A DNA stretch of 64,000 nucleotides. Source: an uncultured bacterium (GTDB lineage Bacteria > Cyanobacteriota > Vampirovibrionia > Gastranaerophilales > Gastranaerophilaceae). Positions 675 to 59,322 of this stretch are shown one piece after another. Every line of letters starts with the position of its first letter. Positions within the stretch are counted from its first letter, which is position 1. A program made the translations under genes and the position numbers. The stretch lies in the NCBI GenBank assembly GCA_902489575.1, contig CABUAQ010000001.1, forward strand, positions 146 to 64,145, read 5' to 3'. Below the pieces are notes generated by a model. The model had not been told where the DNA came from. It saw nothing but the letters and a program-made list of their open reading frames with translations, and searched no databases.

Positions 675-1370
675 ATGAAATATAAAGGCATAATTTTTGA
701 TTTTAACGGAACATTATATTGGGATTCAGCTAAACACAAACAAACCTGGAGAGAATATTCTAAAATTCTTCGTGGAACACCGTTTACCGATGAAGAAATG
801 ATAAAATATATGTTTGGCAGAACAAATGAACAAATCATAAAATACGCAATAGGAAAGCAGCCTACTCCTGAAATGGTAGAAAAATACGGTCAGGAAAAAG
901 AAGCCCTATATCGAAAAATGAGCGTTGAAGATACTGAAAACTTCCACTTAGCTCAAGGTGCAGAAGAGTTTTTGGATTTTTTAAAAGAAAATGATATTCC
1001 GCGAACAATTGCTACAATGTCAGATTGGGGTAATGTTGAATTCTATATTGAACACTTTAACCTTGGAAAATGGTTTGATATAGATAAAATAGTTTATTCT
1101 GATGGAAAAATCCCGGGAAAACCCGCTCCTGATATATATGAAATTGCAGCAAAAAATTTGGGGCTAGCTCCTCAAGATTGTATTGTAGTAGAAGATGCGA
1201 TATCCGGGATTGACTCTGCTAAAGCTGCAAATATTGGAAAAATTATTGCAATATGTTCAGAAGAACCTCCTGAATTATACAAAAATATTCCCGCTGTTAG
1301 TGGAATTATTCAAAATTTTGAGGATTTTGACAAAACATTGTTCGAGCTTCCCAGCCATAACAAAATCTAA
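675..1370 (+). CDS. HAD-superfamily hydrolase (beta-phosphoglucomutase-like, subfamily IA)
   Basis: HAD motif I 'IIFDFNGTL', later 'GKPAPDIY' and 'VVEDAISGIDSAKAANIG'. 231 aa. Starts right after the upstream stop. Confidence 0.75.
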   Translation: MKYKGIIFDFNGTLYWDSAKHKQTWREYSKILRGTPFTDEEMIKYMFGRTNEQIIKYAIGKQPTPEMVEKYGQEKEALYRKMSVEDTENFHLAQGAEEFLDFLKENDIPRTIATMSDWGNVEFYIEHFNLGKWFDIDKIVYSDGKIPGKPAPDIYEIAAKNLGLAPQDCIVVEDAISGIDSAKAANIGKIIAICSEEPPELYKNIPAVSGIIQNFEDFDKTLFELPSHNKI

Positions 1371-2128
1371 TTCCAAGGATAATCAGAACTAATCTTCCAG
1401 CCATCTTTAAATATAACAGCTGCACAGGCAGTTCCAACTCCAGGTCTATCTCCATTATAAGCAAATGATGTTGCATCCTTGTTACACCCTCGTGGTATAT
1501 TTTTGTCAAGCAATTGTGCTCTTGTATATTGAATATGAGGTACTCCTCCACCTCCATATCCACCTGGATAAATACCATTAGCTATAACAGTAGTTTTATC
1601 TAAAGAGAAATCGTTATTAAACAAATAAAACGAAAAAACATCTTTTCCCATCTGATTTCGAGCACTTTTCCCGTTTATATCAACTATAACAGATATCAGG
1701 TGAAATGCTCCATCATTAACTTTATTAAAGCCAAATACCATTCCATTATTCAATACAATACTATATGGTACAGTGTGTGTCATTCTTACACCTGCAAGAT
1801 CATAATAACCATTAAAATTACCGGTAGTCCAACATCCATCACTCATACGGGTACATACTCTTGCAACATTTAAATATGGCAAAAAATATTTCCGTGCAAA
1901 TTCATCAACTGGCAATGAAGTATCAAAATAAATAGACCCTTCATCTCCTGACTCGGCACTATACATTCTAACCGCCTGAGATAATATTGACAAAGCCTCT
2001 CTAATACCCGAAACCGCAGCACGTTTTTGATACATTGTTATTAAACTTGGAATAGTAAAAGCTGCAATAACTCCAATAATCCCTAATGTTATTAAAACTT
2101 CTGATAAAGTAAAAGCTTTTTTCTTCAT
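1367..2128 (-). CDS. Type IV pilin-like protein (prepilin N-terminal cleavage/methylation domain)
   Basis: N-terminus MKKKA|FTLSEVLITLGIIGVIAAFTIPSLI (class III signal peptide with Glu at +5). C-terminal Cys pair and tail '...CAAVIFKDGWKISSDYPWN' shared with paralogs in this window. Confidence 0.85.
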   Translation of the reverse strand: MKKKAFTLSEVLITLGIIGVIAAFTIPSLITMYQKRAAVSGIREALSILSQAVRMYSAESGDEGSIYFDTSLPVDEFARKYFLPYLNVARVCTRMSDGCWTTGNFNGYYDLAGVRMTHTVPYSIVLNNGMVFGFNKVNDGAFHLISVIVDINGKSARNQMGKDVFSFYLFNNDFSLDKTTVIANGIYPGGYGGGGVPHIQYTRAQLLDKNIPRGCNKDATSFAYNGDRPGVGTACAAVIFKDGWKISSDYPWN

Positions 2129-6713: not shown

Positions 6714-7510
6714 TTACTTAACATTCCAAGGATAATCTCCTTGAATAGTCCAATTATCTCCAACAATTAATGCAGCACACCAATAACCGCTTTTACCCTT
6801 TGCGCACGAGTTACCACTAGAACCTTTAACGACATCACGTTTATAAACTTTTCCTATACTCCAGCTCGCAGGAGTACCTGCATTACCTAACGGCTGCAAT
6901 CCATATTCTGAACTTAGGAAAAATAAAAATGTATCTTTGCCTACTTTATTTGGTTTTGAAATTCCATTAACATCAATCCCTACCCATAAACCGCTTTCAT
7001 TACCAGAATTTAGGTTTGCAGAAACAATAGCACCGTTAATTAAAGAAAAATGATACGCATTTCCCCCTGTATATGTCGTTCCGGAATATCTTGATCCATT
7101 TAAATTTGTCCTTGGAGCAACTTTAAATAACTCCCCGGAAGAATAAGAGTTCATAACTTTTACATAATTTTGAATGTACTTTTCAAAAAAAGCTTTACCT
7201 GATAACGTTGTATCCCAAGAATCAACTTCTCCGTTATCTTCTTGAGATAACTTCATTGCCTGCTGCATAATACTATAAGTCTCTTTTAACTGTGTAACTG
7301 TTTTTCTTTTTTGGTAATTAGCAATTAACCCGGGTATTGTTAATGCAGCAACAACTCCTATAATACCTAATGTAATCAAGACCTCAGATAATGTAAACGC
7401 GTTTAAAGTCCGGGGTAAAAATAGTTTTCTAATCGCGAAACCGCGGTCAAAGTAAGGCTTTAAGAGGTTACCCCCCCCCCGAATTTCTTACTATACTTGA
7501 ATTTTAGCAT
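6714..7510 (-). pseudogene. Type IV pilin-like gene A, frameshifted at a G10 tract as assembled (candidate phase-variable, OFF state)
   Basis: SD AAAGGAGGA plus ATG 7510 opens MLKFKYSKKF, then G10 (7480-7471), then GGGVTS and stop at 7462-7460. The pilin body (..LNA|FTLSEVLITLGIIGVVAALTIP.. to 6714, ending GDYPWNVK) is open only in the frame reached with G11 or G8. The track start at 7379 is a TTG inside the hydrophobic helix. Confidence 0.8.
7471..7480 (-). repeat. Homopolymer G10 on the coding strand (C10 on plus)
   Basis: Direct read: 'ggtta cccccccccc gaatt'. Exactly ten C at 7471-7480. Confidence 0.95.
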
Positions 7511-7607
7511 ATTTATCCTCCTTTATTATTGACAGATATAATATAACATATTATTTGAAATATTACAAACAGAAAATTTATGTTAAAATTAGAAAAAAGG
7601 AGCTCAT

Positions 7608-8123
7608 ATGGTCAACAAGATTATTATATTTTCAGGCAAACAATATTCAGGTAAAGATACAGCAGCAAAGATAATGCTTGATAAAATGCCCGATTATAGA
7701 CGTTGCGCAATGGGTGATATTATAAAAATGACCTATGGGCAAGAAAAAGGTCTTAGTTTTGAACAAATTGAACAAAATAAAGCTTTGCACCGTGCAGATT
7801 TAATACAATTAGGAAACTGGGGCAGAAAACAAGACCCTGATTACTGGTTAAAAAAAATTCTTGAACAGGATGGTAATATTATTGTTACAGATGTCCGTGT
7901 TCCACATGAATATGAAATTTTTAAACGAGCACATGCCATTTCCATCAGAATAGAAGCCTCCAGACAAACACGCAGCAGCCGCGGCAAACTTGTTGGAGAG
8001 AATGATATAACAGAAATCGGGCTTGATAATATCAAAGACTGGGATTACGTAATTGATAACAACAGCGATTATACTAATCTTGAGCAACAAGTCCTAAAAA
8101 TAATACAAGAAATTTCAAATTAA
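7608..8123 (+). CDS. P-loop kinase (dNMP kinase / phosphomevalonate-kinase-like family)
   Basis: 171 aa. Walker A-like 'FSGKQYSGKDT' close to the N-terminus. SD AAAAGGAG upstream of the ATG. Family assignment is by motif resemblance only. Confidence 0.5.
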   Translation: MVNKIIIFSGKQYSGKDTAAKIMLDKMPDYRRCAMGDIIKMTYGQEKGLSFEQIEQNKALHRADLIQLGNWGRKQDPDYWLKKILEQDGNIIVTDVRVPHEYEIFKRAHAISIRIEASRQTRSSRGKLVGENDITEIGLDNIKDWDYVIDNNSDYTNLEQQVLKIIQEISN

Positions 8124-8131
8124 CACCTACC

Positions 8132-8407
8132 CTAAGGGCAAAGGTTTTCCCAATCCGGCTCTTCGGATTCATCGCCAGGTTCTACGATATGCTCCCCGTA
8201 TTCAAGCATTACCTGCAGGGATAATTTCAACTGCTGCTTATAATTTTCTCTAGCCCGCGCAAGAGTCTTGGCACAGAAAGTAAAACTCGGAATTTCTTTT
8301 ATTTCAATATAATAATAAGGATTTCCGTCAAAATCCAAATCCTGACCTTCTATAAGGGTCCAATTTAAATTTAAATAATAATCTAAGTCTTTTTCTTTTG
8401 GTTCCAT
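8132..8407 (-). CDS. Small HicB/UPF0150-like protein
   Basis: 91 aa. Pattern 'YYYIEIKEIPSFTFCAKTLARARENYKQQLKLSLQVMLEYGEHIVEPGD' resembles the HicB-type fold. No HicA partner is seen. Confidence 0.4.
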   Translation of the reverse strand: MEPKEKDLDYYLNLNWTLIEGQDLDFDGNPYYYIEIKEIPSFTFCAKTLARARENYKQQLKLSLQVMLEYGEHIVEPGDESEEPDWENLCP

Positions 8408-8418
8408 ACTTACTAATA

Positions 8419-9024
8419 TTAATTATCTAAAGACGAGTTTGTCAACGGTTGAGAAAGCATAATCCCTTCTCCTCCGACAACATCTGCCCTTTGACCATCT
8501 ATATACAAATAAACCGGTATTTTTGAATTCAAATTGACAGTTTTTATCAACTGATAAAGTCTTTTATACAAACTCTCCGTACCGCCGCCCATTACAAAAG
8601 AAGAATTCAAATTAACAATAATCTTATCCGGCTGCTCTGTTATATTGATAACCTCAGAACTTGCCGGGACTTCCGTATATACACCTCTTTGTTTTTCTTC
8701 AGGTCTTGGACCGCGAATTAGAGAATTCACAGAATACTTAATTTTTGAACCGTCAATATCTTTGTTATATTCACGCTTTACTGCTTTATAGACTTCTTCA
8801 TTATGTTCATTTTTACCTATAAAGTAAACATTAACATATTCTTTCTCAACAGCCTCAACTTTTGGATCTTCTACAACTTCTTCCTGTACAGAACGTTCTG
8901 AAACTTTTACCTGGTCAGGAGTAATATCCGGCTTTGGCATAAACACCTGAAAAGCGATTATGCCAATTACCACGATCATACAAAAACCTATAAATAATAA
9001 AAGGACTTTCTGATTCTTATTCAT
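8419..9024 (-). CDS. Membrane-anchored GerMN-domain protein
   Basis: N-terminal TM helix (VLLLFIGFCMIVVIGIIAF), then a 'VNVYFIGKN...LIRGPRPEE...' GerM-like segment. Confidence 0.55.
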   Translation of the reverse strand: MNKNQKVLLLFIGFCMIVVIGIIAFQVFMPKPDITPDQVKVSERSVQEEVVEDPKVEAVEKEYVNVYFIGKNEHNEEVYKAVKREYNKDIDGSKIKYSVNSLIRGPRPEEKQRGVYTEVPASSEVINITEQPDKIIVNLNSSFVMGGGTESLYKRLYQLIKTVNLNSKIPVYLYIDGQRADVVGGEGIMLSQPLTNSSLDN

Positions 9025-9036
9025 TAAAAAATACCT

Positions 9037-9885
9037 TTAGTCTTTTTGAAGTATAACAACCCCGTCAGTAACAATTACGTTATTTTGAATTTCAGCAGTT
9101 TTAACCATAACTCTGGCTTCTTTATCTGCATAAATATTAACAGAAAAATCTAACGGATTCAGGTAATTTAAAATAAAATCAATCTTCTTCAAATCAAGTT
9201 TTATTTTTCCGGAAACTATTTTAGTATTACTAAAGTCAATTTTACCATTTTTAACATTCAAATCTGCCTGAAGAACCATTTTTTGTTCATGTCTTAAAAA
9301 TGGAACATTAAAGCCTACAATATAATAGAACTTGTTACTTTTAATGGCGACATTTGTAGAGGAAATTTGAAGACCTCCGCCATAAGATGCACCAATTTTA
9401 TTTAACTCGCTAATAACTTTTTGATATCTGCCATGCTTCATTGTTTTGTTAATGGAATCCTGAGTCATTGTAATATTAAATGCCATCGGCATATCCTCAA
9501 CAAACACGACACTGCTGCCTGATTTTTTAATGTAGTTAAAATCACACAGAGTTTTTAAATCTAATGATGTTAAATGAATATCATTTACAACAATGTCATT
9601 ACCTTTAACATGAGCCGATTTAAAAATACCTCTGCCTAAATCAACAGGACTGTAAGAATCTATATCAACTTCTAAATCTTCTGAAGAGATAGTTTTAAGA
9701 ATTTCTTTTTTTATTACAGATTCGACATATTTTTCATTTATAGAATTAACACCTGTAACCGCACTCATAAAAGTTACAAATTTATTATTTAAATTATACG
9801 GAGCAACACATTCGTACTCACATGCAGCCATAGCAGCATTATTCACGGCTAATAACATTCCAAGTAATAAACAAATCTTTTTCAT
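9037..9885 (-). CDS. Secreted or lipoprotein-like hypothetical protein (possibly DUF2993/LmeA-like)
   Basis: Signal peptide MKKICLLLGMLLAVNNAAMAAC. 282 aa. Overlaps the truB stop by 4 nt, so probably cotranscribed. Family guess is weak. Confidence 0.4.
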   Translation of the reverse strand: MKKICLLLGMLLAVNNAAMAACEYECVAPYNLNNKFVTFMSAVTGVNSINEKYVESVIKKEILKTISSEDLEVDIDSYSPVDLGRGIFKSAHVKGNDIVVNDIHLTSLDLKTLCDFNYIKKSGSSVVFVEDMPMAFNITMTQDSINKTMKHGRYQKVISELNKIGASYGGGLQISSTNVAIKSNKFYYIVGFNVPFLRHEQKMVLQADLNVKNGKIDFSNTKIVSGKIKLDLKKIDFILNYLNPLDFSVNIYADKEARVMVKTAEIQNNVIVTDGVVILQKD

Positions 9886-10769
9886 AACACCTCTAATAAT
9901 TTTTTGACCAAAATTTTATTTTGCTCTACCATACCTATAGCATATATTCTACCACTATAAACTAAAAAAACAATATCTGAATTTTTAAAATTTTTACATT
10001 CAATCCCCATCCCATGCAAAACTCGTTCTCTTTCTACATCAGAAAGATAATGAACAGGCAAATTCATAACAGATAAAGGGTTTATTAAACTTGCCCTAAT
10101 ATTTGAAATATCAGCAATCCTCTCCAGCCGGATTGAATCTTCCACCAAGAACTTCCCTGCCCTTGTGCGCTCAAGAGCAGTCAAATACCCGCCACATTGC
10201 AATTTTTGTCCCAGATCATAAGCAATTGAGCGGATATATGTACCTTTGGAGCATGCCACAGCCAGCTTTGCGCACTGCTGTTCAGAATCAAAATCTACCA
10301 ATTTCAGCTTTGAAATAAAAACTTTACGCGGCACTATTTTAACATCTTCACCCTTTCTTGCATATTCGTACAATTTTTTACCATTTACTTTTATTGCAGA
10401 ATATACAGGAGGAAGCTGCATAATTTCACCTCTGAAATTGTCAAGGATATTTTCGACCTCATCCTGAGTAACTTTTTTATCAAAAGCTGCTGTAACTTCT
10501 CCATCCAGATCGTAAGTGTCTGTATTTTTTCCGAATTGAACCGTTGCAAGATACTCTTTATCATCCTCCAAATACTCAATAAGACGGGTTGCCTTACCAA
10601 TACAAACAGGTAAAACTCCTGTTGCAAAAGGATCTAAAGTTCCTGTATGCCCTATTTGTTTAACTTTAGTAACACGACGAAGCTTTGCAACAACGTCATG
10701 AGATGTTATTCCTTTAGGTTTATATATATTCAAAAATCCAAAGGGTAAACTTCCAGTATCTAAAACCAT
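9882..10769 (-). CDS. truB: tRNA pseudouridine(55) synthase
   Basis: Motif 'GHTGTLDPFATGVLPVCIGKATR'. 295 aa. Sits in the rbfA-truB context. Confidence 0.92.
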   Translation of the reverse strand: MVLDTGSLPFGFLNIYKPKGITSHDVVAKLRRVTKVKQIGHTGTLDPFATGVLPVCIGKATRLIEYLEDDKEYLATVQFGKNTDTYDLDGEVTAAFDKKVTQDEVENILDNFRGEIMQLPPVYSAIKVNGKKLYEYARKGEDVKIVPRKVFISKLKLVDFDSEQQCAKLAVACSKGTYIRSIAYDLGQKLQCGGYLTALERTRAGKFLVEDSIRLERIADISNIRASLINPLSVMNLPVHYLSDVERERVLHGMGIECKNFKNSDIVFLVYSGRIYAIGMVEQNKILVKKLLEVL

Positions 10770-10780
10770 TTACCCTCCAG

Positions 10781-11125
10781 TTAAAGTTCACCTCTTGATA
10801 TTTTATTTATCAATTCAGTTACCCTCGCACCTTCTTCAAGACCGTTTGAATAAACAAATCTCAATTCCGGAGTTAAGCGTAATCTAAGCATTTTACCAAC
10901 ATGGTAGCGAATATTTGGAGTACTTTTTTCAATAACAGACTTTGTTTTTTCAATCTGTTCTTCTGAACCCAAAACACTATATATAACTTTTGCAAAAGAA
11001 TTGTCATGTGCAACTTCTACATCAATAATCGAGACAACACCTTCTAACCCTCTAATTTCTTTTCTCAAAATCTCAGAGATATCGCGCATCAACTCTTTTC
11101 TAACTCTTTCATTTCGTAATGTCAT
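10781..11125 (-). CDS. rbfA: Ribosome-binding factor A
   Basis: 114 aa, 'RNERVRKELMRDISEILRKEI...' RbfA-type N-terminus. Position between infB and truB. Confidence 0.88.
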   Translation of the reverse strand: MTLRNERVRKELMRDISEILRKEIRGLEGVVSIIDVEVAHDNSFAKVIYSVLGSEEQIEKTKSVIEKSTPNIRYHVGKMLRLRLTPELRFVYSNGLEEGARVTELINKISRGEL

Positions 11126-11216
11126 AAATTTCTCCTTAGTAAAAAAATTATAACATAAAATATCTAAAACTCACCGCCCGATCGGCTTCTATTAAAGCCA
11201 ATTAATATAAATAAAT

Positions 11217-11468
11217 TTAAACAGTTTTATCTACCCGCTCAAAAATTTTCTTATACTCCGGATCAAGTTTTGGAAAAAGCTCAAAAAACATCTGTTTTAA
11301 GCTTTCAAACACTGAAACTTTTTTACTTTCTTTAATAATCAACTTATCCATAACAACCTGCTTATCATTCCAACAATCAACAATAAGCTTATTCTTTGGA
11401 ACTTTTGCTTGAAACGTAACAGTATTAACCTTTTGGCAGAATGGTTGAACAGAAGTTATCACACACAC
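11217..11468 (-). CDS. Hypothetical protein between infB and rbfA
   Basis: 83-aa ORF with a GTG start 3 nt after the infB stop; the exact start is uncertain. No motif recognised, and it does not look like DUF503/YlxP. Confidence 0.4.
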   Translation of the reverse strand: MCVITSVQPFCQKVNTVTFQAKVPKNKLIVDCWNDKQVVMDKLIIKESKKVSVFESLKQMFFELFPKLDPEYKKIFERVDKTV

Positions 11469-11471
11469 CCC

Positions 11472-14021
11472 CTACAAAGATTTACGTTCAACTTCTTCAG
11501 TTGTTGAAACCTCGATGATATCCCCTTCCTGAATATCATTGAATTTACTGAATGAAATACCACACTCAAAACCTTGTGCAACTTCTTTTACATCATCCTT
11601 GAAACGTTTTAACTGGTCAATTGCACCGCGGAATATTTCCTCACCGTTACGAACAAGAACGGCATCTTTTGAACGAACAATTTTACCTTCTAATACATAA
11701 CAACCTGCAATTTTGTTTGTTTTACCAATTGTGAATACCTGACGAACTTCAGCTTTACCCAAAGCAACTTCTTTTACTTCAGGTTCAAGAAGTGATAACA
11801 ATGTTTTTTCTACATCTTCCAACAATTGATAAATAATATCATATTTCTTGATTGTTACACCTTCTTTTTCAGCCGAAGCCATTGCATTTGAGTCTTCTTT
11901 TACTGTAAAGCCCAAAATCAAAGCATTAGACGCTGAAGCAAGCATTACATCGGCTTCTGATATATCACCAACTCCAACGTGAATAATTTTTGTAGTAATT
12001 TCTTTTGATTCAACCTGAGCAATCGCCTGGGCTACAGCCTCCGCAGAACCATGTGTATTTGCTTTGATAATCAGGTTTAATTGAGGAATAGCATCATCAC
12101 CTGCAACAGCTTCTTTTCTAATATGAGCAGGAAGCATAGCCTCTAACCTCTTATCGCGTTCTTTTTCTTTGCGATCTGCAATAATGGCTTTCATTTCTTT
12201 TTCATTTTTTACTACTTCAAAGTAATCACCCGCCTGAGGAACCTCTGACAAACCTAAAATTTCAACCGGAGTAGATGGTTCTGCTTTTTGAATTCTCTCA
12301 CCGCTATCTGATAACAATGCACGAATTCTGCCGCAAGCTGTACCGACAACAATACAATTACCTGCACGAAGTGTACCGTTTTGAACCAATAACGTTGCAA
12401 CAGGACCTTTACCTTTATCTAAATTTGCCTCAATAACAACACCTGAAGCTTCGGCTTTAGGATTGGCTTTTAAATCCTGAACATCAGCAACAAGCAGGAT
12501 GTATTCCAACAACTCATCGATACCTGTACCTTGCAAAGCTGAAACTCTGACAGTAATAGTATCACCGCCCCAGTCTTCCGGAACAAGCCCGTGTTCTGTT
12601 AATTGTTGTAATACTTTATCCGGATTTGCTCCCGGTTTATCAATCTTATTAACCGCAACAATAATAGGGATATCTGCGGCCTTTGCATGGTTAATTGCTT
12701 CAATTGTTTGAGGCATAATACCATCATCTGCAGCTACAACAAGAATCGCAATATCTGTAGCTTTAGCACCACGTGCTCTCATTTCGGTAAATGCTTCGTG
12801 CCCGGGAGTGTCCAGAAATACAATTTTCTTATCGTTATTATCTCCTAAATAAACAGTATAAGCCCCGATAGACTGGGTTATACCACCAACTTCCGTTGAT
12901 ACAATCTTGTGTTTTGACGCTCTTATACTATCAAGCAATGTAGTTTTACCGTGGTCTACGTGACCCATAATACTAATGACAGGAGCACGTTTTTTCAATA
13001 ACTTTTTATCTACTTCTGTTAAAGCTTTTGCTTTTTCTTCTTTTTCAAGCTCTTGTTCAATATAAGCATCCAAATCTTCATCAAGAACTTCTAAACCATA
13101 TTCAGCACAAACTTTCTTTATTACATCAACGTCAATAAGCTGGTTAACCGTAGCCATAACTCCATTTAACATAAGGAATTTAACAATTTCGGCAGGAGTT
13201 TTTTTAATTTTTTCCGATAATTCAGAAATTGTCATAGCCTGATTAACAACAATTTGTGTAACTTCTTCAACGGCTTCAACTTTTTGAACCTTTTTCTTAT
13301 GGTGCTGAGCAGCAGCTTTTTCTAAAGAAATCCTTTCCTGTTCTTCTTTTTTAGAAAATTCTTTATCTTTCTTTTTACCATCTGTTCTGCGTTTGGAATT
13401 TGAAGCCGCAGCACCTTTATTATCGTATATTTCCTGAGGTATTATACGACGCTGCAGAGGCTTTTTAGCACCATAATCGCCCTCAGTTACAGGCCTTTCT
13501 GATTTGGAGAACTTACGTTCTGCGCCCTGTCCTTTTTCTCCGCGCGGCTGAAATTTTCTATCCTCCCCTTGAGGATTTTTACCAAAAGGTTTTCTTGCCG
13601 GACGTTCAGATTTTTCAGAACTATCAGCAGGTTGTACAGCTTTTTTAGGAGCACGTCTTACAATTTCTAAACGGCTAACCGGTTTTACAACCTCAACTTT
13701 TGGACGTTCAATCTTCTCTATTTTTACCGGGGATTCAACATCAACAGTTTTGGATGAATTCTTTGGCTCAGCTTCTTCTTCATTTCTTATTTCAGCATCA
13801 GAAGGTTTTGCTTTTTTTACAACAAAAGCTTTGGGTTTTGCAGCTTTTTTTACTCCGCCGTTTGCAATAAACTCTTTTAAGCGGTTAATCTGATCAATAG
13901 TAACAGTACTTGAATGAGTTTTACCTGTTATCCCCATCTGGGCAAACTTTTCAACAACTTCTTTACTTTGAAGCCCAAGTTCTTTTGCTAATTCACTTAT
14001 TCTAATTGTTTCGTAACTCAT
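11472..14021 (-). CDS. infB: Translation initiation factor IF-2
   Basis: 849 aa. G-domain motifs '[12 protein letters not shown]', 'DTPGHEAF', 'NKID'. Charged low-complexity N-terminal region typical of IF-2. Confidence 0.97.
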
Positions 14022-14259
14022 CTAATAACTGTCCTTTCAATTCGCTTTGTATAGAGGTTTTTAAATACTTTGCCAGCTTATTCTTTTTAAAAGCTGTTTC
14101 TATACAAGATTTATTATAGCAAAGATATGCAGATCTGCCAAATATATCGGAATTCGGATTTATAATGACTTTTGAGCTCTTGCTGTCAGCCGTAATTTTT
14201 ATCAATTCCTGCCTGTCTTTCACCTGCCAACAACTAACACAACGTCTTTCTGCCACCAA
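14002..14259 (-). CDS. ylxR: YlxR/DUF448 family RNA-binding protein
   Basis: 85 aa, 'RRCVSCWQVKDRQELIKI...GRSAYLC'. Immediately upstream of infB and overlapping it by 20 nt. Confidence 0.85.
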   Translation of the reverse strand: MVAERRCVSCWQVKDRQELIKITADSKSSKVIINPNSDIFGRSAYLCYNKSCIETAFKKNKLAKYLKTSIQSELKGQLLDELRNN

Positions 14260-14269
14260 TATTTGCCCC

Positions 14270-15352
14270 TTAGCCTACCTGTGCTAATTTTTCCAGTTTC
14301 AACTTCTGGTCATACTCAACCAGCAAGTCAATAAGTTCATCCAACTCACCATCAATAACAGTCCAAACATTAAGATTATGATTTAACCTGTGATCAGTTA
14401 GACGACCTTGAGGAAAATTATAAGTCCTAATACGTTCTGATCTGTCACCTGAACCGACTTGAGAACGTCTTAAATCAGTTATTTCTTTAGTTTGCTTTTG
14501 AACTTCCATATCATAAAGTTTTGCCTTAAGAATTTCTAAAGCCCGCTCTTTGTTTTGAAGTTGAGAACGTTCTTCAGTACAGAAAATCATAATTCCTGTA
14601 GGTTTGTGGAATACCCTTGCAGCAGTTTCAACTTTATTAACATTTTGACCGCCGGCACCGCCAGATCTTGCTGTTGTTATTTCAACATCATTCATATTAA
14701 GGTTAACCTCAACATCATCAACCTGAGGCATAACAGCAACTGTTGCAGTTGATGTATGAACCCTGCCCTGTGATTCAGTTGCAGGAACCCTTTGAACTCT
14801 GTGAACACCGGATTCATATTTCAAGCGAGAGTATATACTGTCACCCTTCATTGAAATAATTACTTCAGAAACACCGCCTGCTTCACAATCAGTTTTACTC
14901 AAGATTTGAGTCTGCCAGCCCATTTTATCAGCGTAACGCAAATACATACGCATCAAATCTCCAGCAAAAATATTTGCTTCATCCCCACCGGCACCGCCAC
15001 GGATTTCAAGCATGATATCTTTATCATCCATCGGATCCCGAGGCAGAAGGAGGACTTTCATTCTTTCTTCAAAACCCGGGAGTTTTGCTTCATTTTCCTC
15101 CATTTCTGCCTTCAAAAACTTGCGCATCTCTTCATCTTTTTCTTCATGAAGCATTTGCTTTGCATCTTCTATAGCCTCTGTTGTTTCTTTCCATTCATAA
15201 TAAAGATTAACGGTTTCTTCCATTGATTTACGCTGTTTTGACAAATCTCTGAAACGATTATAATCTTGAATCACAGCAGGATCTGAAAGAGTTTCGCCAA
15301 GCTCTTTATATTTCTTTTCTATTTGTAAAATTTTATCTAACATATCTTTCAT
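14270..15352 (-). CDS. prfA: Peptide chain release factor 1
   Basis: '[12 protein letters not shown]' (PxT tripeptide type = RF1) and '[15 protein letters not shown]' (GGQ). The track ORF starts at a TTG (15394); I start at ATG 15352 ([15 protein letters not shown]). Confidence 0.93.
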
Positions 15353-15422
15353 ACCTGCATAATAACAGGAACATGAAAATTTTACAAACTTCAACAGCTA
15401 TAATGATTATTATATAGTCAAA

Positions 15423-16213
15423 TTATCTATATAAAGAGTCCCAATAACCTTTTGTCTGATCATCCGGATTTTTATCTTTCTTTGCCCAATCATAACAACC
15501 TCGTCCATTATATCGAGATTCGTCTTTATTGTTACAAAGGTTGTTCCAACCACCTGTGGTATAAATAAATAAATCATATCCATATCTGTCTGGACCATTG
15601 TGTGGCCCGTTTGTATCAAAAGTAAACGTTATACCATCGTAAACACCATGATAAAAGTAGGTTATAGAAGTAACAGAAGCTCCACTTTGTAATAAATACA
15701 TCCTGGGCTTATCAACTGTTCTATATTCCATTCCATATACATTTGCATAAGGTAATACTCTTTTAGTGCCTTTGAAATTTGTTACAAACTTTCTCTTCTT
15801 CATCTTATTATACAAATAATCCCAAGTAAGCGGAGTCGCACCTGCAAACTGACTTGCCCAAACGGAATTCACAACACTAAAATATTCTTTATTTTTATCC
15901 CAAGGCTCATTTCGTCTTGCATTAAAATCTGCAAAACTATCAACTGAGAATTCTTCAGATGTCATTTTCATGGCTTGCTGCAATACCGCGTCCATTTTAG
16001 TAAAAGCAATCTTCAATGATTTTCGTTGATAATTATGATACATAATTGGAATAATTATAGCTGCGACAACACCGATAATTCCCAAAGTGATCAAGGTCTC
16101 AGCAAGGGTAAACGCCTGTTTCTTCTTTTTAAACCCGTAAAAAACATTTACGAATAAACTCTTTAAAAGGCTACCCCCCCCCCGAAATTAAAGCTATGAC
16201 TGTGTTTTAACAT
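15423..16213 (-). pseudogene. Type IV pilin-like gene B, frameshifted at a G10 tract as assembled (candidate phase-variable, OFF state)
   Basis: SD AAAGGAGGA plus ATG 16213 opens MLKHSHSFNF, then G10 (16183-16174), then GGGVAF and stop at 16165-16163. The pilin body (..KKKKQA|FTLAETLITLGIIGVVAAIIIP.. to 15423) is open only with G11 or G8. No ATG/GTG/TTG lies between the tract and the FTLAE motif in that frame. Confidence 0.8.
16174..16183 (-). repeat. Homopolymer G10 on the coding strand (C10 on plus)
   Basis: Direct read: 'ggcta cccccccccc gaaatt'. Ten C at 16174-16183. Confidence 0.95.
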
Positions 16214-16231
16214 TTTACATTTCCTCCTTTA

Positions 16232-17152
16232 TTAGTATAATTTATGCCTGCTTTGCAAACGCAATTGAGCAATTTCTTCTCTTATTTCATCAGACTTATT
16301 TGCCAGCCTGTTATACACCTGCGAATTTATTTCCCCTCCAATTAACAGTAAAATTGATGTATAATACAACCAGATCATTAAAATAAAAAATGCACCGATT
16401 GTTCCATATACCAGGTTGTAAGTACTCAAATTATTAACATAAATGGAAAACCCCCACGAACCAACTAACCATAAAGTTGTAAAAAACACCGTTCCCGGCA
16501 GCGCGCTTTTTCGCTTAAAAGCCTCATTTCCCCGCAAATCCGGCAAAATATAATAACTTAAAAATGCCATCACATACAACGCTAAAAACGCGACCGGCCA
16601 GCGAAGTGTCAAAATAGTTATCGCAACCCCCTTTGACATATTAAAATGTGCAACCAAAAACATTACAATAACTTTACCAAAAATAATAATGTTAATAGTC
16701 AAAAATAATACTAAAATATTTACAAAAACCATTAGAAAAGAAAGAATCCTTGTGTAAAGAAAACTTCTGGTTTCTTCAACTTTATAGGCTCTGTTCAAAC
16801 CCTTCAATACAACTGCAACTCCATTTGTTGAAAGCACAAGAGTCGTAATAATACCAATAATCGCTAATAATTGGCCGTGATCAAATATCATAGTTTCAGC
16901 AAGGACTGATTTCAGCAAATTCATAGCCTGTGTCGGCATAATATTTGATAAAACCCTCAAAATTGAATCAAGGTAAGATTTATTACCCATCCAGCCAAAT
17001 ACCGCCATCAAAAACAACATAAACGGGAAAATCCCTACAACAAGCATAAAACCCATTTCAGCAGCCATTCCATAAAAATCATTTTTAATAATTGATTTGA
17101 TAAGCTTCACAAGTGCTCTTATATATTTGTTTTTGATAAGTTTCTTTAACAT
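16232..17152 (-). CDS. YihY/BrkB-family membrane protein
   Basis: 306 aa, 6 or more TM segments, with family-typical 'YGxxGAxxxxMxWLY' near the C-terminus (YGTIGAFFILMIWLYYTS). Confidence 0.75.
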   Translation of the reverse strand: MLKKLIKNKYIRALVKLIKSIIKNDFYGMAAEMGFMLVVGIFPFMLFLMAVFGWMGNKSYLDSILRVLSNIMPTQAMNLLKSVLAETMIFDHGQLLAIIGIITTLVLSTNGVAVVLKGLNRAYKVEETRSFLYTRILSFLMVFVNILVLFLTINIIIFGKVIVMFLVAHFNMSKGVAITILTLRWPVAFLALYVMAFLSYYILPDLRGNEAFKRKSALPGTVFFTTLWLVGSWGFSIYVNNLSTYNLVYGTIGAFFILMIWLYYTSILLLIGGEINSQVYNRLANKSDEIREEIAQLRLQSRHKLY

Positions 17153-44610: not shown

Positions 44611-45285
44611 TTAGTAAGGCATAACCCAGTTATTTTCAATAACAGCAGCTGCACAATGATTAGCATTTCCAGCTTTACACATCGTTATTTTCTGGGCAAG
44701 TGTCAAATCCTCATTAAGAGGTGTAATCTTTCCTTTTCTGGTTATATAGAAACAGAAGTAATCCCTACCCCACATATTTGGACCATCATTAGCGTTAACA
44801 TCCATACAAAAATCAGAAATAACGTCATCTGTTGTATCAGCATAATAAACTTGCTTAGTGACAAGAGAGTACGATATAATACCGCCGTTTTGGAGCAATA
44901 TACTTGTATATCCAGCTCCTACCGGAGTAGCTGTTCCACCATTTAAATTACGATAAGTAATCAATTTTCCCTGCTCATCCTGAGTTGTTTTCCAACAATC
45001 TTTTGCGGAATCAGCACAAGTTTTAGCAACCGAGAAATTTGAATTTGTCAGTAATGTTGCAGGATTTTTAAAATCTGTTTCCAATAAATTTTTTGTTTTA
45101 TGCGCAATAAGCTGATCAAAAATAAGTTGTTGAACCGAACCTACCGTACTTTTTAACTGAGTTGTCAGCAATCTGTTATTTATAGAAATTAACAAACTTG
45201 GTACTGACAAGGCAGCAATAGCACCAACAATACCCAATGCTACCAATAATTCTGTTAACGTAAATGCATTCTTATTATTTATCAT
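44611..45285 (-). CDS. Type IV pilin-like protein
   Basis: Start at ATG 45285 (SD AAAGGAG): MINNKNA|FTLTELLVALGIVGAIAALSVPSLL. C-terminal Cys pair '..MCKAGNANHCAAAVIENNWVMPY'. Confidence 0.85.
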   Translation of the reverse strand: MINNKNAFTLTELLVALGIVGAIAALSVPSLLISINNRLLTTQLKSTVGSVQQLIFDQLIAHKTKNLLETDFKNPATLLTNSNFSVAKTCADSAKDCWKTTQDEQGKLITYRNLNGGTATPVGAGYTSILLQNGGIISYSLVTKQVYYADTTDDVISDFCMDVNANDGPNMWGRDYFCFYITRKGKITPLNEDLTLAQKITMCKAGNANHCAAAVIENNWVMPY

Positions 45286-45295
45286 AAAAACTCCT

Positions 45296-45988
45296 TTAAT
45301 TATCATTTACCAAATAGTTCGGATCAAATCCTGTCAACACCGCCAGTGTATAACAAGCATAGGGTTTACCGTTTGCTTTGCAATCTGCACGATTTACTGC
45401 AATATCCTCACTGTGCTCAAGATGATCCCCAGTGTGGATTCCATTATTTAAATCGTTCTCATCAGACAATTCCAACTCAAAAAGATCAACCCCGGCAATA
45501 TTTGGTTCTTTATTACCGTTCAAATCAATATTGAAAAGTACGGCTTTCCTCCCATTATACTTTGCACTTGATGCAGATCTGGGTGCTAACAATCCAATAC
45601 CTACCCCCGTTTTTAATAAAACCGAAGCATTATACGTTCCAGTACCGATGCCACTTACGGCAGTTCGATCAAAGTTTTTATACCCTCCCTCCGGAAAATA
45701 TATTAGTGTTCCGCTGCCCTGACCATCTACTACATCAAACTTGTTAAGAAACTTTTCCGGATTTTTAAATATATCAGTATCTGAAAGCTTTCTGGCGCCT
45801 GTTTGTATAAGCTCATTTTGAACAAGATCATTCAAATTTGACACAGTTCCCTGTAACAACGCCATTGATGACCTATTTTGAATATCTTTTATTACCCCTG
45901 CTATTACCAATGCTGCAACCGTTCCAATAACAGTTAATGCTATAAGAACCTCAGATAGCGTAAAACCATCTTTTTTTATCTTAATCAT
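45296..45988 (-). CDS. Type IV pilin-like protein (canonical Gly at -1)
   Basis: MIKIKKDG|FTLSEVLIALTVIGTVAALVIAGVI. Immediately upstream of 44611..45285. Confidence 0.85.
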   Translation of the reverse strand: MIKIKKDGFTLSEVLIALTVIGTVAALVIAGVIKDIQNRSSMALLQGTVSNLNDLVQNELIQTGARKLSDTDIFKNPEKFLNKFDVVDGQGSGTLIYFPEGGYKNFDRTAVSGIGTGTYNASVLLKTGVGIGLLAPRSASSAKYNGRKAVLFNIDLNGNKEPNIAGVDLFELELSDENDLNNGIHTGDHLEHSEDIAVNRADCKANGKPYACYTLAVLTGFDPNYLVNDN

Positions 45989-58701: not shown

Positions 58702-59322
58702 CTAGAATTTAATTGGATAATCGCTCTTAAATTCCCATTGATCATTTTGCAACAGCCTGGTACAACTGGATCTATTATTTACACATTGGTCTATCATAGC
58801 TTGACGGGAAGTAGCTTGGCTAGTTATACCAGATCCATACACCCCAAAAAATATATCCTCACTGCCAAAGTAGTCTCTTCTACCGTCTTTATTGAAACAA
58901 TATAAGAATCTATACTGATCGTACCCCTCAGAATTAGGTGATTTATCACCGTTTACATCGTAAATAACATCCAAACATCCACCGGTAAAAAAAGTTCCCA
59001 GCTTACTTCCGTCTTTATAATATACCTGCTTTGTCGCTGTATCCACAAACTGATGCCCCATATACGGATCAATATTTTCCATATACCAATCAAAGCCATT
59101 ACCCTGGGTCGGAAGAATCATATCTTTAAATGAACCTTTATCCATCTGCATATCAAGCACCGCATTATCCATTTTGCTGTAGAAATTCTTCAATTTTGCC
59201 GAATATTCTTTCTTAACTCTGTTATAATTCAATGTAGGAATTGTCAGTGCTGCAACTACACCGACAATTGTCATTGTTATCATAACTTCCGCTAAAGTAA
59301 ATGCCCATTTTTTTTGCATCAT
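58702..59322 (-). CDS. Type IV pilin-like protein
   Basis: MMQKKWA|FTLAEVMITMTIVGVVAALTIPTL. C-terminal 'DQCVNNRSSCTRLLQNDQWEFKSDYPIKF' shares the Cys-loop and W..DYP tail of the family. Confidence 0.85.
   Translation of the reverse strand: MMQKKWAFTLAEVMITMTIVGVVAALTIPTLNYNRVKKEYSAKLKNFYSKMDNAVLDMQMDKGSFKDMILPTQGNGFDWYMENIDPYMGHQFVDTATKQVYYKDGSKLGTFFTGGCLDVIYDVNGDKSPNSEGYDQYRFLYCFNKDGRRDYFGSEDIFFGVYGSGITSQATSRQAMIDQCVNNRSSCTRLLQNDQWEFKSDYPIKF

Follow-up and report, generated by a model that had tools for sequence, protein, structure and literature searches.

Poly-G leader cassettes ahead of type IV pilin-like genes in Gastranaerophilales as probable independent on/off switches

Two type IV pilin-like genes, here called locus A and locus B, lie on the minus strand of a 64,000-nucleotide (nt) stretch of contig CABUAQ010000001.1 from an uncultured member of the Gastranaerophilaceae (assembly GCA_902489575.1; 34% GC). 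This whole stretch is referred to as the window, and coordinates are whole-window positions unless another contig is named. Each gene is preceded by a short cassette whose elements, by direct reading, follow the same order at both loci: the Shine-Dalgarno (SD) block TAATAAAGGAGGA, the start ATG-YTA-AAA, ten codons ending in TTC, a run of ten guanines (G10), a TAR triplet and the pyrimidine-rich flank CCTYTTAAAG (Table 1). An earlier note on this DNA had listed these shared elements, and the list held in all its details.

The arrangement of reading frames is the same at both loci. The G10 tract starts 30 nt after the ATG in each, and the distance from the ATG to the first TTG of the body open reading frame (ORF) is 131 nt at locus A and 119 nt at locus B, both equal to 2 modulo 3; the earlier note had calculated these distances correctly, together with the gain of one or loss of two nucleotides that they demand. 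When tract lengths from G8 to G13 were translated in silico, G11 and G8 gave an uninterrupted prepilin (265 and 264 amino acids (aa) at locus A, 263 and 262 aa at locus B), and these are referred to as ON lengths; G9, G10, G12 and G13 gave stubs of 13-17 aa. From the upstream stop to the FTLxE motif, the body frames of both loci lack ATG, GTG and TTG, and an internal start for the bodies was ruled out, since no start codon precedes FTLxE and none stands at SD spacing after the G run. The ON-frame leaders, of 37 residues (A) and 33 residues (B), consist of the cassette followed by an ordinary basic stretch, and end at the cleavage motifs NA↓FTLSEVLITLGIIGVVAAL and QA↓FTLAETLITLGIIGVVAAI (↓, predicted cleavage site), with Ala at position -1. 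The predicted leader-body junction peptides are FGGGGNLLKPYF... and (K)FGGGGNLLKPYFDR, and the mature N-terminus would be (methyl-)FTLSEV....

We regard each locus as very likely an independent slipped-strand simple-sequence contingency switch, with both switches OFF in this assembly. Having no start codon of its own, the pilin-like gene would be translated solely as a fusion to the upstream cassette, which would supply a strong SD, ATG-YTA-AAA, ten codons ending in TTC, the poly-G tract and a short spacer to the basic prepilin leader and the A↓FTLxE site. A G would be gained or lost through slipped-strand mispairing as the DNA is replicated, and one length in three (here G11 or G8) would join the ATG frame to the pilin, giving a prepilin with a leader of 33-37 residues that begins with MLK, contains three or four glycines and would be removed by prepilin peptidase. 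In the two remaining frames translation would stop 0-3 codons past the tract and no pilin would be made, because the body frame has no start codon. Loci A and B would switch independently, as members of a large Gastranaerophilales cassette family, and such a family would give a population a combinatorial repertoire of pilin-like surface proteins. Within this scheme we infer that replication slippage is the process altering tract length, that switching is reversible within a population and that the long leader is cleaved.

Table 1. Positions of the cassette elements, encoded proteins and further pilin-like genes in the window.
Feature	Position	Strand	Basis or remark
Locus A promoter candidate, sigma-70-like (TTGTAA, 17 nt spacer, TATATT, with TG)	7540..7568	-	Consensus scan alone
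Locus A SD block TAATAAAGGAGGA	7516..7528	-	Direct reading; identical 13-mer at locus B
Locus A start codon and ten leader codons MLKFKYSKKF, last codon TTC (7483-7481)	7481..7510	-	ATG 7510-7508
Locus A G10 tract (putative switch)	7471..7480	-	Run scan, in-silico translation
Locus A TAA immediately 3' of the tract	7468..7470	-	Direct reading
Locus A 16-codon stub ORF as assembled (MLKFKYSKKFGGGVTS, then stop)	7460..7510	-	Translation
Locus A pyrimidine-rich flank CCTCTTAAAG; its TAA 7462-7460 closes the G10 frame	7458..7467	-	Direct reading
Locus A post-tract leader in body frame (GNLLKPYFDRGFAIRKLFLPRTLNA), without ATG, GTG or TTG	7398..7472	-	Translation
Locus A mature pilin-like protein FTLSEVLITLG..., DUF6613 family, stop codon included	6714..7397	-	Pfam, homologs, model, dN/dS
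Locus B SD block TAATAAAGGAGGA	16222..16234	-	Overlaps the stop codon of the upstream BrkB/YihY-like ORF (16232-17152)
Locus B start codon and ten leader codons MLKHSHSFNF, last codon TTC	16184..16213	-	ATG 16213-16211
Locus B G10 tract (putative switch)	16174..16183	-	Run scan, in-silico translation
Locus B TAG immediately 3' of the tract	16171..16173	-	Direct reading
Locus B 16-codon stub ORF as assembled (MLKHSHSFNFGGGVAF, then stop)	16163..16213	-	Translation
Locus B pyrimidine-rich flank CCTTTTAAAG; its TAA 16165-16163 closes the G10 frame	16161..16170	-	Direct reading
Locus B post-tract leader in body frame (GSLLKSLFVNVFYGFKKKKQA), without ATG, GTG or TTG	16113..16175	-	Translation
Locus B mature pilin-like protein FTLAETLITLG..., stop codon included	15423..16112	-	Pfam N_methyl, 614 homologs
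Pilin-like gene, short leader, no tract	1367-2128	-	Pfam N_methyl
Pilin-like gene, short leader, no tract	44611-45306	-	Pfam N_methyl
Pilin-like gene, short leader, no tract	45296-45988	-	Pfam N_methyl
Pilin-like gene, short leader, no tract	58702-59322	-	Pfam N_methyl

Apart from the two tracts, the window contains no run of 7 or more G's or C's, as had been noticed before. The run scan returned 8 overlapping 7-mer matches against 1.64 expected, a count reached by none of 100 shuffles.

Both encoded proteins have the signature of type IV pilin-like proteins, with Pfam N_methyl matches at E = 9e-4 (A) and 2e-5 (B), a [G/A]↓F-T-L-x-E cleavage/methylation motif and, after it, about 20 hydrophobic residues; their ON-frame leaders, at 37 and 33 residues, would be longer than the short basic leader of about 6-30 residues by which type IV prepilins are recognized. 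The locus A protein also matches DUF6613. Homologs are numerous (3417 for the locus A protein and 614 for that of locus B). In alignment the two proteins are 46% identical over their first ~92 residues and their bodies are unrelated beyond that point, so the earlier observation that the pilin bodies diverge after the N-terminal part was correct. A structural model of the mature locus A protein (window 6717-7400, m6d6a82d11862) was obtained with high confidence (predicted local distance difference test score, pLDDT, 90.3); its helix spans residues 4-56 and leads into a beta-rich head, and the alignment shows two C-terminal cysteines that do not vary. Foldseek comparison of this model with the PDB gave no informative match (best E = 0.96), and the DUF6613 head fold, as modelled, is absent among solved structures.

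Relatives of the cassette were sought by scanning one genome per species, and then metagenomes, for the pattern CCCCCCCCGAA-N15-21-TTTTARCAT, which on the opposite strand reads ATG-YTA-AAA, a gap of 15-21 nt, TTC and 8 or more G's. The species-genome scan matched 48 stretches, about 41 of them from metagenome-assembled genomes (MAGs) of Gastranaerophilales/Melainabacteria, and a single MAG from water deer, RGIG8857, held at least 16 cassette copies. Metagenomes contributed about 15 further cassettes, for about 55 loci with a cassette overall. In 387 kb of related loci, every one of the 52 G runs of 8 or more was preceded by a cassette-type leader (an ATG about 30 nt upstream, ...TTC), and 37 of these runs were followed by a pilin motif within 220 nt. 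The spacing from ATG to tract was 30 nt in most related cassettes, when the pattern permitted 27-33 nt. The earlier note had named a lack of conservation in related genomes as a refuting outcome; the cassette proved conserved in Gastranaerophilales relatives, and on the sequences compared it is a family trait of the Gastranaerophilales (Melainabacteria). The RbfA encoded in the window belongs to a cluster at 90% identity with a member labelled 'Candidatus Melainabacteria bacterium'.

Several of the cassette-bearing MAGs are mislabelled, as Brachyspira sp. CAG:484, Muribaculaceae, Heliobacteriaceae or plain 'Bacterium'. Gene calls and taxonomy labels for cassette-bearing organisms are unreliable.

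Frame states were counted in 38 unique cassettes that can be opened into an ATG-to-pilin ORF by one tract change. Tract lengths ranged over G8 (one cassette), G9 (three), G10 (twelve), G11 (fifteen), G12 (five) and G13 (two). By frame, 4 cassettes are open, 22 need -1/+2 and 12 need +1/-2, the last class including the window loci. For 78% of cassette frames both off frames reach a stop within 4 codons past the tract, compared with 36% of out-of-frame control positions in ordinary window genes. Since G10 and G11 make up 27 of the 38 tracts and A and B share a subtype, the G10 common to the two loci is about a one-in-four coincidence: the identical tract length and frame state to which the earlier note drew attention are real, but unremarkable.

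This census also bears on programmed recoding, in which the out-of-frame tract would itself be the working state and RNA polymerase slippage, or a ribosomal shift on G GGG GGG, would yield a steady low level of pilin. The dominance of OFF lengths (34 of 38) is in keeping with such a scheme, as is the known behaviour of long homopolymers as slippage sites for RNA polymerases. All three frame states nevertheless occur in the family, in-frame genes included, and near-identical paralogs within one genome carry G10, G11, G12 and G13. Among the cassettes in frame are L034, L038 and L047, and many complete ORFs with the same leader plan were recovered when the 70 N-terminal residues of the protein from repaired locus A served as query in an exhaustive HMMER search. 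Two proteins 39% identical to that of locus A (P0107 and P0114) read MKFKENKLVGGGGNRLKSS...AA↓FTLAEV through G11 in three independent assemblies; in-frame leaders of the form M-x9-GGG(G)-N-x-L-K are found in P0363 (MLECSNSLKFGGGGNPLRPLF...G↓FTLAEV), P0312, P0273, P0320, P0303 and P0410, and P0184 is an in-frame relative of locus B (MKKSLVNTRNVGGGGTDLSSYNA↓FTLAEV).

Other samples of the same species were retrieved through the flanking genes. The locus A tract, G10 in the window, is likewise G10 in L001 (SRR32969599) and L086 (ERZ19692824), is G9 in L085 (ERR13988495), and in L084 the contig begins within it (positions 1-5). The locus B tract, G10 in the window, is G9 in L087 (SRR32969599; 3470-3487), whose contig ends 9 nt past the tract, and the 3' end of contig L088 falls within it. 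Sample SRR32969599 therefore combines G10 at locus A with G9 at locus B, so the two loci are not coupled, and correlated switching of A and B was ruled out. Length polymorphism on an otherwise unchanged background was also seen between L016 (G10) and L075 (G11), whose flanks are 100% identical over 500 and 700 nt. In L002, the locus A ortholog (83% protein identity) has G8 followed by A and lies in the other off frame. The locus A orthologs accordingly show no fixed frame relation of the kind that recoding presupposes, since G10 needs +1 whereas the G9 of L085 and the G8A of L002 need -1/+2.

In three independent short-read assemblies (L084, L087, L088) the contig breaks at locus A or B, either within the tract or no more than 9 nt from it, which suggests mixed lengths or poor poly-G reads in those samples. 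Such breaks are also what a sequencing or assembly artefact would produce, with true tracts of G11 whose homopolymers were undercalled; poly-G is a recognized problem of Illumina chemistry, the 'G's end' effect (PMC9187656), and the same +1 would repair both loci. The independent assemblies, however, give G10 (L001, L086) or G9 (L085, L087) and never G11, and relatives were assembled at G11, G12 and G13, which shows that longer runs can be called. A complete MAG based on HiFi reads (L049) is also out of frame. Moreover, the in-frame length differs among cassettes, so a uniform undercall cannot give the observed spread of states. Homopolymer undercalling, one of three readings put forward in the earlier note, is therefore highly improbable.

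That all sampled copies of both loci are OFF could also mean that they are decaying pseudogenes, frameshift-inactivated pilin genes whose cassettes resemble one another through shared ancestry alone. Some related cassettes do look degenerate, with extra leader stops in L013 and L043 and interrupted tracts in L002 (G8A) and L089 (C7ACCC). The bodies of the window loci tell against decay. Between the mature part of locus A and its L002 ortholog, both OFF and in different frames, the ratio of nonsynonymous to synonymous substitution rates (dN/dS) is 0.08 over a dS of 1.3, whereas the post-tract leader gives 0.32; in five samples the bodies are full length and have no further lesions. In addition, G runs of 8 or more are kept in a 34% GC genome at cassette sites only, and in-frame members are common. 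We consider pseudogene decay very unlikely. Judged from these substitution rates, the body of locus A is under strong purifying selection and has been kept functional though every sampled copy is off.

Purifying selection on bodies whose sampled copies are all OFF would also be expected if out-of-frame templates were expressed through recoding, and no ON form of the window loci was found among homologs or by exact protein look-up. On tracts of G10-G13 a degree of leakiness is likely on physical grounds, and it would operate alongside switching at the DNA level. The cassettes show little of what a programmed shift might use: the window copies have no significant RNA structure relative to shuffles (fold z = 0.16 for A and +1.69 for B), by which an RNA element specific to them was ruled out, and there is no SD-like stimulator upstream of the tract, the flank being anti-SD-like instead. 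For the one analogue studied by experiment, slippage of the G tract during replication, and not recoding, is what the authors report (PMC9187656). The earlier note chose none of its three readings but leaned to recoding on account of the +1 requirement shared by A and B; a fixed +1 requirement does not survive the comparison of orthologs, and as the main mechanism recoding is improbable. Obligatory programmed recoding is thus disfavoured, while low-level rescue of OFF templates by transcriptional slippage may occur.

The remaining reading of the earlier note, independent slipped-strand switches that are both OFF, fits the conserved cassette, the range G8-G13, the three frame states and the length polymorphism. 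The loci also display the features by which contingency loci are recognized: a homopolymer of at least 8 in the 5' coding region, a length that toggles the product and differs between samples, and a tract that is over-represented and conserved in position. Several observations nevertheless weigh against it. No ON length (G11 or G8) of either window locus was found, the top homolog matches being OFF forms, and the exact predicted ON proteins of A and B are absent from 15 billion proteins. Across the family fewer than one cassette in three is ON (4 of 38). The same OFF length has been kept in three strain pairs that have diverged slightly (window/L001, L011/L056 and L028/L061), an identity that recoding would also predict, so that the consensus length is steadier than would be expected if switching were free and neutral. 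To account for such stability, ON must be selected against in the sampled gut populations, or tract lengths must follow a sharply peaked distribution, or OFF templates must allow some expression; by analogy with mostly-off gene families, selection against ON in faecal populations would explain both the missing or rare ON forms and the shared OFF lengths. Tract lengths were taken from assembled contigs, and the G9 call at locus B (L087) stands only 9 nt from a contig end. Ala at -1 and a leader of 33-37 residues are unusual for prepilins. Finally, a Pfam scan of 29 window ORFs that flank the six pilin-like genes, roughly half of the long ORFs in the window, revealed neither pilus machinery nor a prepilin peptidase; pilA-D and pilT have been reported for a Gastranaerophilus genome (PMC5877343).

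The sequence just 3' of the tract has properties of its own. In a subset of relatives it complements the SD, with covariation of the pairs from locus to locus (L034:606-701, L031:4848-4944, L047:1618-1715, L003:303-396), the SD and flank partners being AAGGAGAT/ATCTCCTT, AAGGAGC/GCTCCTT, TTTAAGGAG/CTCCTTAAA, GGAGAGT/GCTCTCC and GAGAGGA/TCCTCTC. Of 51 cassettes, 20 have a Watson-Crick match of at least 6 that takes in the SD core, compared with 2 of 174 control genes; when the RGIG8857 paralogs are excluded, 8 of 38 cassettes have one (p = 2e-5). A second helix, of GCUAAAA (codons 2-3) with UUUUAGC, is present in RGIG8857. The CTCCTT motif falls in different reading frames at different loci, which suggests a constraint acting on the nucleotides. 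Pairing of the flank with the SD, where the sequences allow it, would sequester the ribosome-binding site. At the window loci such pairing amounts to just 5-6 pairs including G-U and is not convincing; the flank CCTCTTAAAG of locus A could pair weakly with both the SD (6 pairs, one G-U) and the G run. Folding of the window cassettes favours a hairpin of the G run with the pyrimidine stretch, and RNAalifold on 24 cassettes gives a weak helix between the same partners (-2.4 kcal/mol), in which covariation is not possible.

Related pilin genes also carry cassettes with a run of C. Those of L090-L095 have C11 in frame (tract 629-639; 481-491 in L095), that of L096 is off at C10 (653-662), and that of L089 is the degenerate C7ACCC mentioned above (629-639). 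The reverse complement of the flank upstream of the C run resembles the flank YAAYCYYTTAAAG downstream of poly-G (position weight matrix p = 0.009, 0.003 and 0.10), which hints, from three cases and a quasi-palindromic motif, that this ~14-nt flank follows the G strand and not the direction of the peptide or gene.

Cassettes were also observed ahead of genes other than pilins. In L016 (tract 4771, +) and L075 (tract 3744, counted on the reverse-complement strand) a cassette precedes a hexapeptide-repeat-like ORF that has its own start codon, and in L021 (tract 3093, +) one precedes a cytidylyltransferase-like ORF, again with its own start codon. Reading the L021 sequence with one G added to the assembled G9 brings the stop of the upstream ORF into overlap with the ATG of the gene (ATGA).

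A more far-reaching proposal, which we offer as a rather unlikely possibility, is that the cassette is a dedicated portable switch module. It would comprise the SD, ATG-YTA-AAA, a fixed 30-nt spacer, the G or C run and the conserved ~14-nt flank YAAYCYYTTAAAG, kept 3' of the G-strand run in either gene direction, and would have been grafted onto many unrelated pilin bodies and placed ahead of glycan-synthesis genes as well; in many copies, pairing of the flank with the SD or start region would add control of initiation at the RNA level or an aid to slippage at the DNA level.

The six pilin-like genes of the window are interspersed with housekeeping genes (glyQ, infB, rbfA, truB, a release factor and a two-component system), and the switch is present on two of the six. 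The other four have leaders of 4-9 residues (MKKKA↓FTLSE, MINNKNA↓FTLTE, ..KKDG↓FTLSE and MMQKKWA↓FTLAE), so that Ala at -1 also occurs in pilin-like genes of this window that have short leaders. The site ahead of glyQ varies between strains: in L083, whose GlyQ is identical, a short-leader DUF6613 pilin (MKKNLG↓FTLAEV) and a 268-aa gene replace locus A (L083:739-2352). The promoter candidate of locus A is placed in the intergenic region between locus A and a divergent kinase-like gene (7608-8123). Directly upstream of locus B the consensus scan found no promoter-like site on the minus strand; as locus B adjoins the BrkB/YihY-like ORF, the two are probably co-transcribed. Locus B further contains a minimal ATG-TAA start-stop at 16215-16220 (minus strand), between the SD and the cassette ATG (GGAGGAA-ATG-TAA-A-ATG), which is unlikely to be used as a start, being too near the SD. 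A programmed frameshift in the release-factor gene adjoining locus B (14270-15394) was considered and ruled out, an ordinary in-frame ATG being read near 15346. Rfam and tRNA scans of the window gave no matches.

In the public annotation of the source contig, locus B is a 190-aa fragment (15423-16094) and locus A a 221-aa protein from an internal TTG (6714-7379), the entries being P0121 (locus B) and P0271. Gene callers that split or truncate switch genes in this way leave the pilin repertoire systematically mis-annotated.

Gastranaerophilales are uncultured, widespread, non-photosynthetic gut relatives of cyanobacteria whose surface biology is almost undescribed. Our analyses imply that they carry many pilin-like genes able to switch independently of one another, with no fewer than 16 in one genome and 2 of the 6 in the window. 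Switch sets of this type are a classic strategy against immunity or phages, or for changing adhesion, and have so far been documented mainly in pathogens. The cassette sequence provides a simple probe for switch states in gut metagenome reads, with which their link to host, diet and phage load can be asked.

A literature search on Gastranaerophilales/Melainabacteria with pilin or phase variation, and on DUF6613, returned nothing on such a switch. The statement in the earlier note that no pilin family with a coding poly-G leader switch has been described stands for type IV pilin subunits as far as the literature search reached, but close analogues exist in Neisseria pilC and opa and in the sortase pilins of Bifidobacterium. 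The opa genes form a multigene family of surface proteins in which each copy has its own repeat and switches independently, most copies being OFF, with combinatorial variation as the outcome. Their CTCTT repeats lie in the leader-peptide coding region (PMC5320596), and a repeat inside the signal-peptide coding region of each family copy is what they share with the cassette genes; they differ in that the repeat is a pentamer, the products are outer-membrane beta-barrel adhesins and there are about 11 copies.

The pilC genes of Neisseria gonorrhoeae and N. meningitidis are alike in having poly-G in the signal-peptide coding region of a type IV pilus protein, with on/off frameshifts and lengths that differ by strain; pilC1 and pilC2 carry G9-G15 in the 5' coding region (PMC5320596; Jonsson et al. 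1991). PilC, however, is a tip adhesin and assembly factor and not a pilin subunit with a class III signal peptide, occurs in one or two copies per genome with no multigene cassette family, has no leader extension added before a prepilin leader, and is not homologous to the proteins of loci A and B. In Campylobacter jejuni (PMC3025981), as in our case, an AT-rich genome confines G8-G13 runs to a few dozen surface-structure genes as a genome-wide switch set, but the tracts stand at varied positions in unrelated genes (glycosylation, capsule, flagellar modification) and no start-codon and leader cassette is shared.

A further parallel is found in another gut commensal, Bifidobacterium breve UCC2003, where in bbr_0113 and bbr_1889 a pilin gene is split by G11/G12 into a signal ORF and a body ORF without SD or start codon (PMC9187656). 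The reference genome is again OFF, frame-restoring slippage leads to pili, and G tracts recur in the pilus clusters of the genus (PMC9187656). The B. breve pili, by contrast, are sortase-dependent (LPXTG) with a Sec signal, the upstream ORF is 65 aa long, and each genome has one or two clusters; their switching has been measured in experiments, whereas that of Gastranaerophilales is deduced from assemblies. By analogy with these systems the mechanism itself, an on/off switch driven by poly-G slippage, is most likely one already known. What is new is the host group, the type-IV-pilin-like targets (DUF6613 and other families), the scale per genome, and the shared start-and-leader cassette placed before an ordinary prepilin leader.

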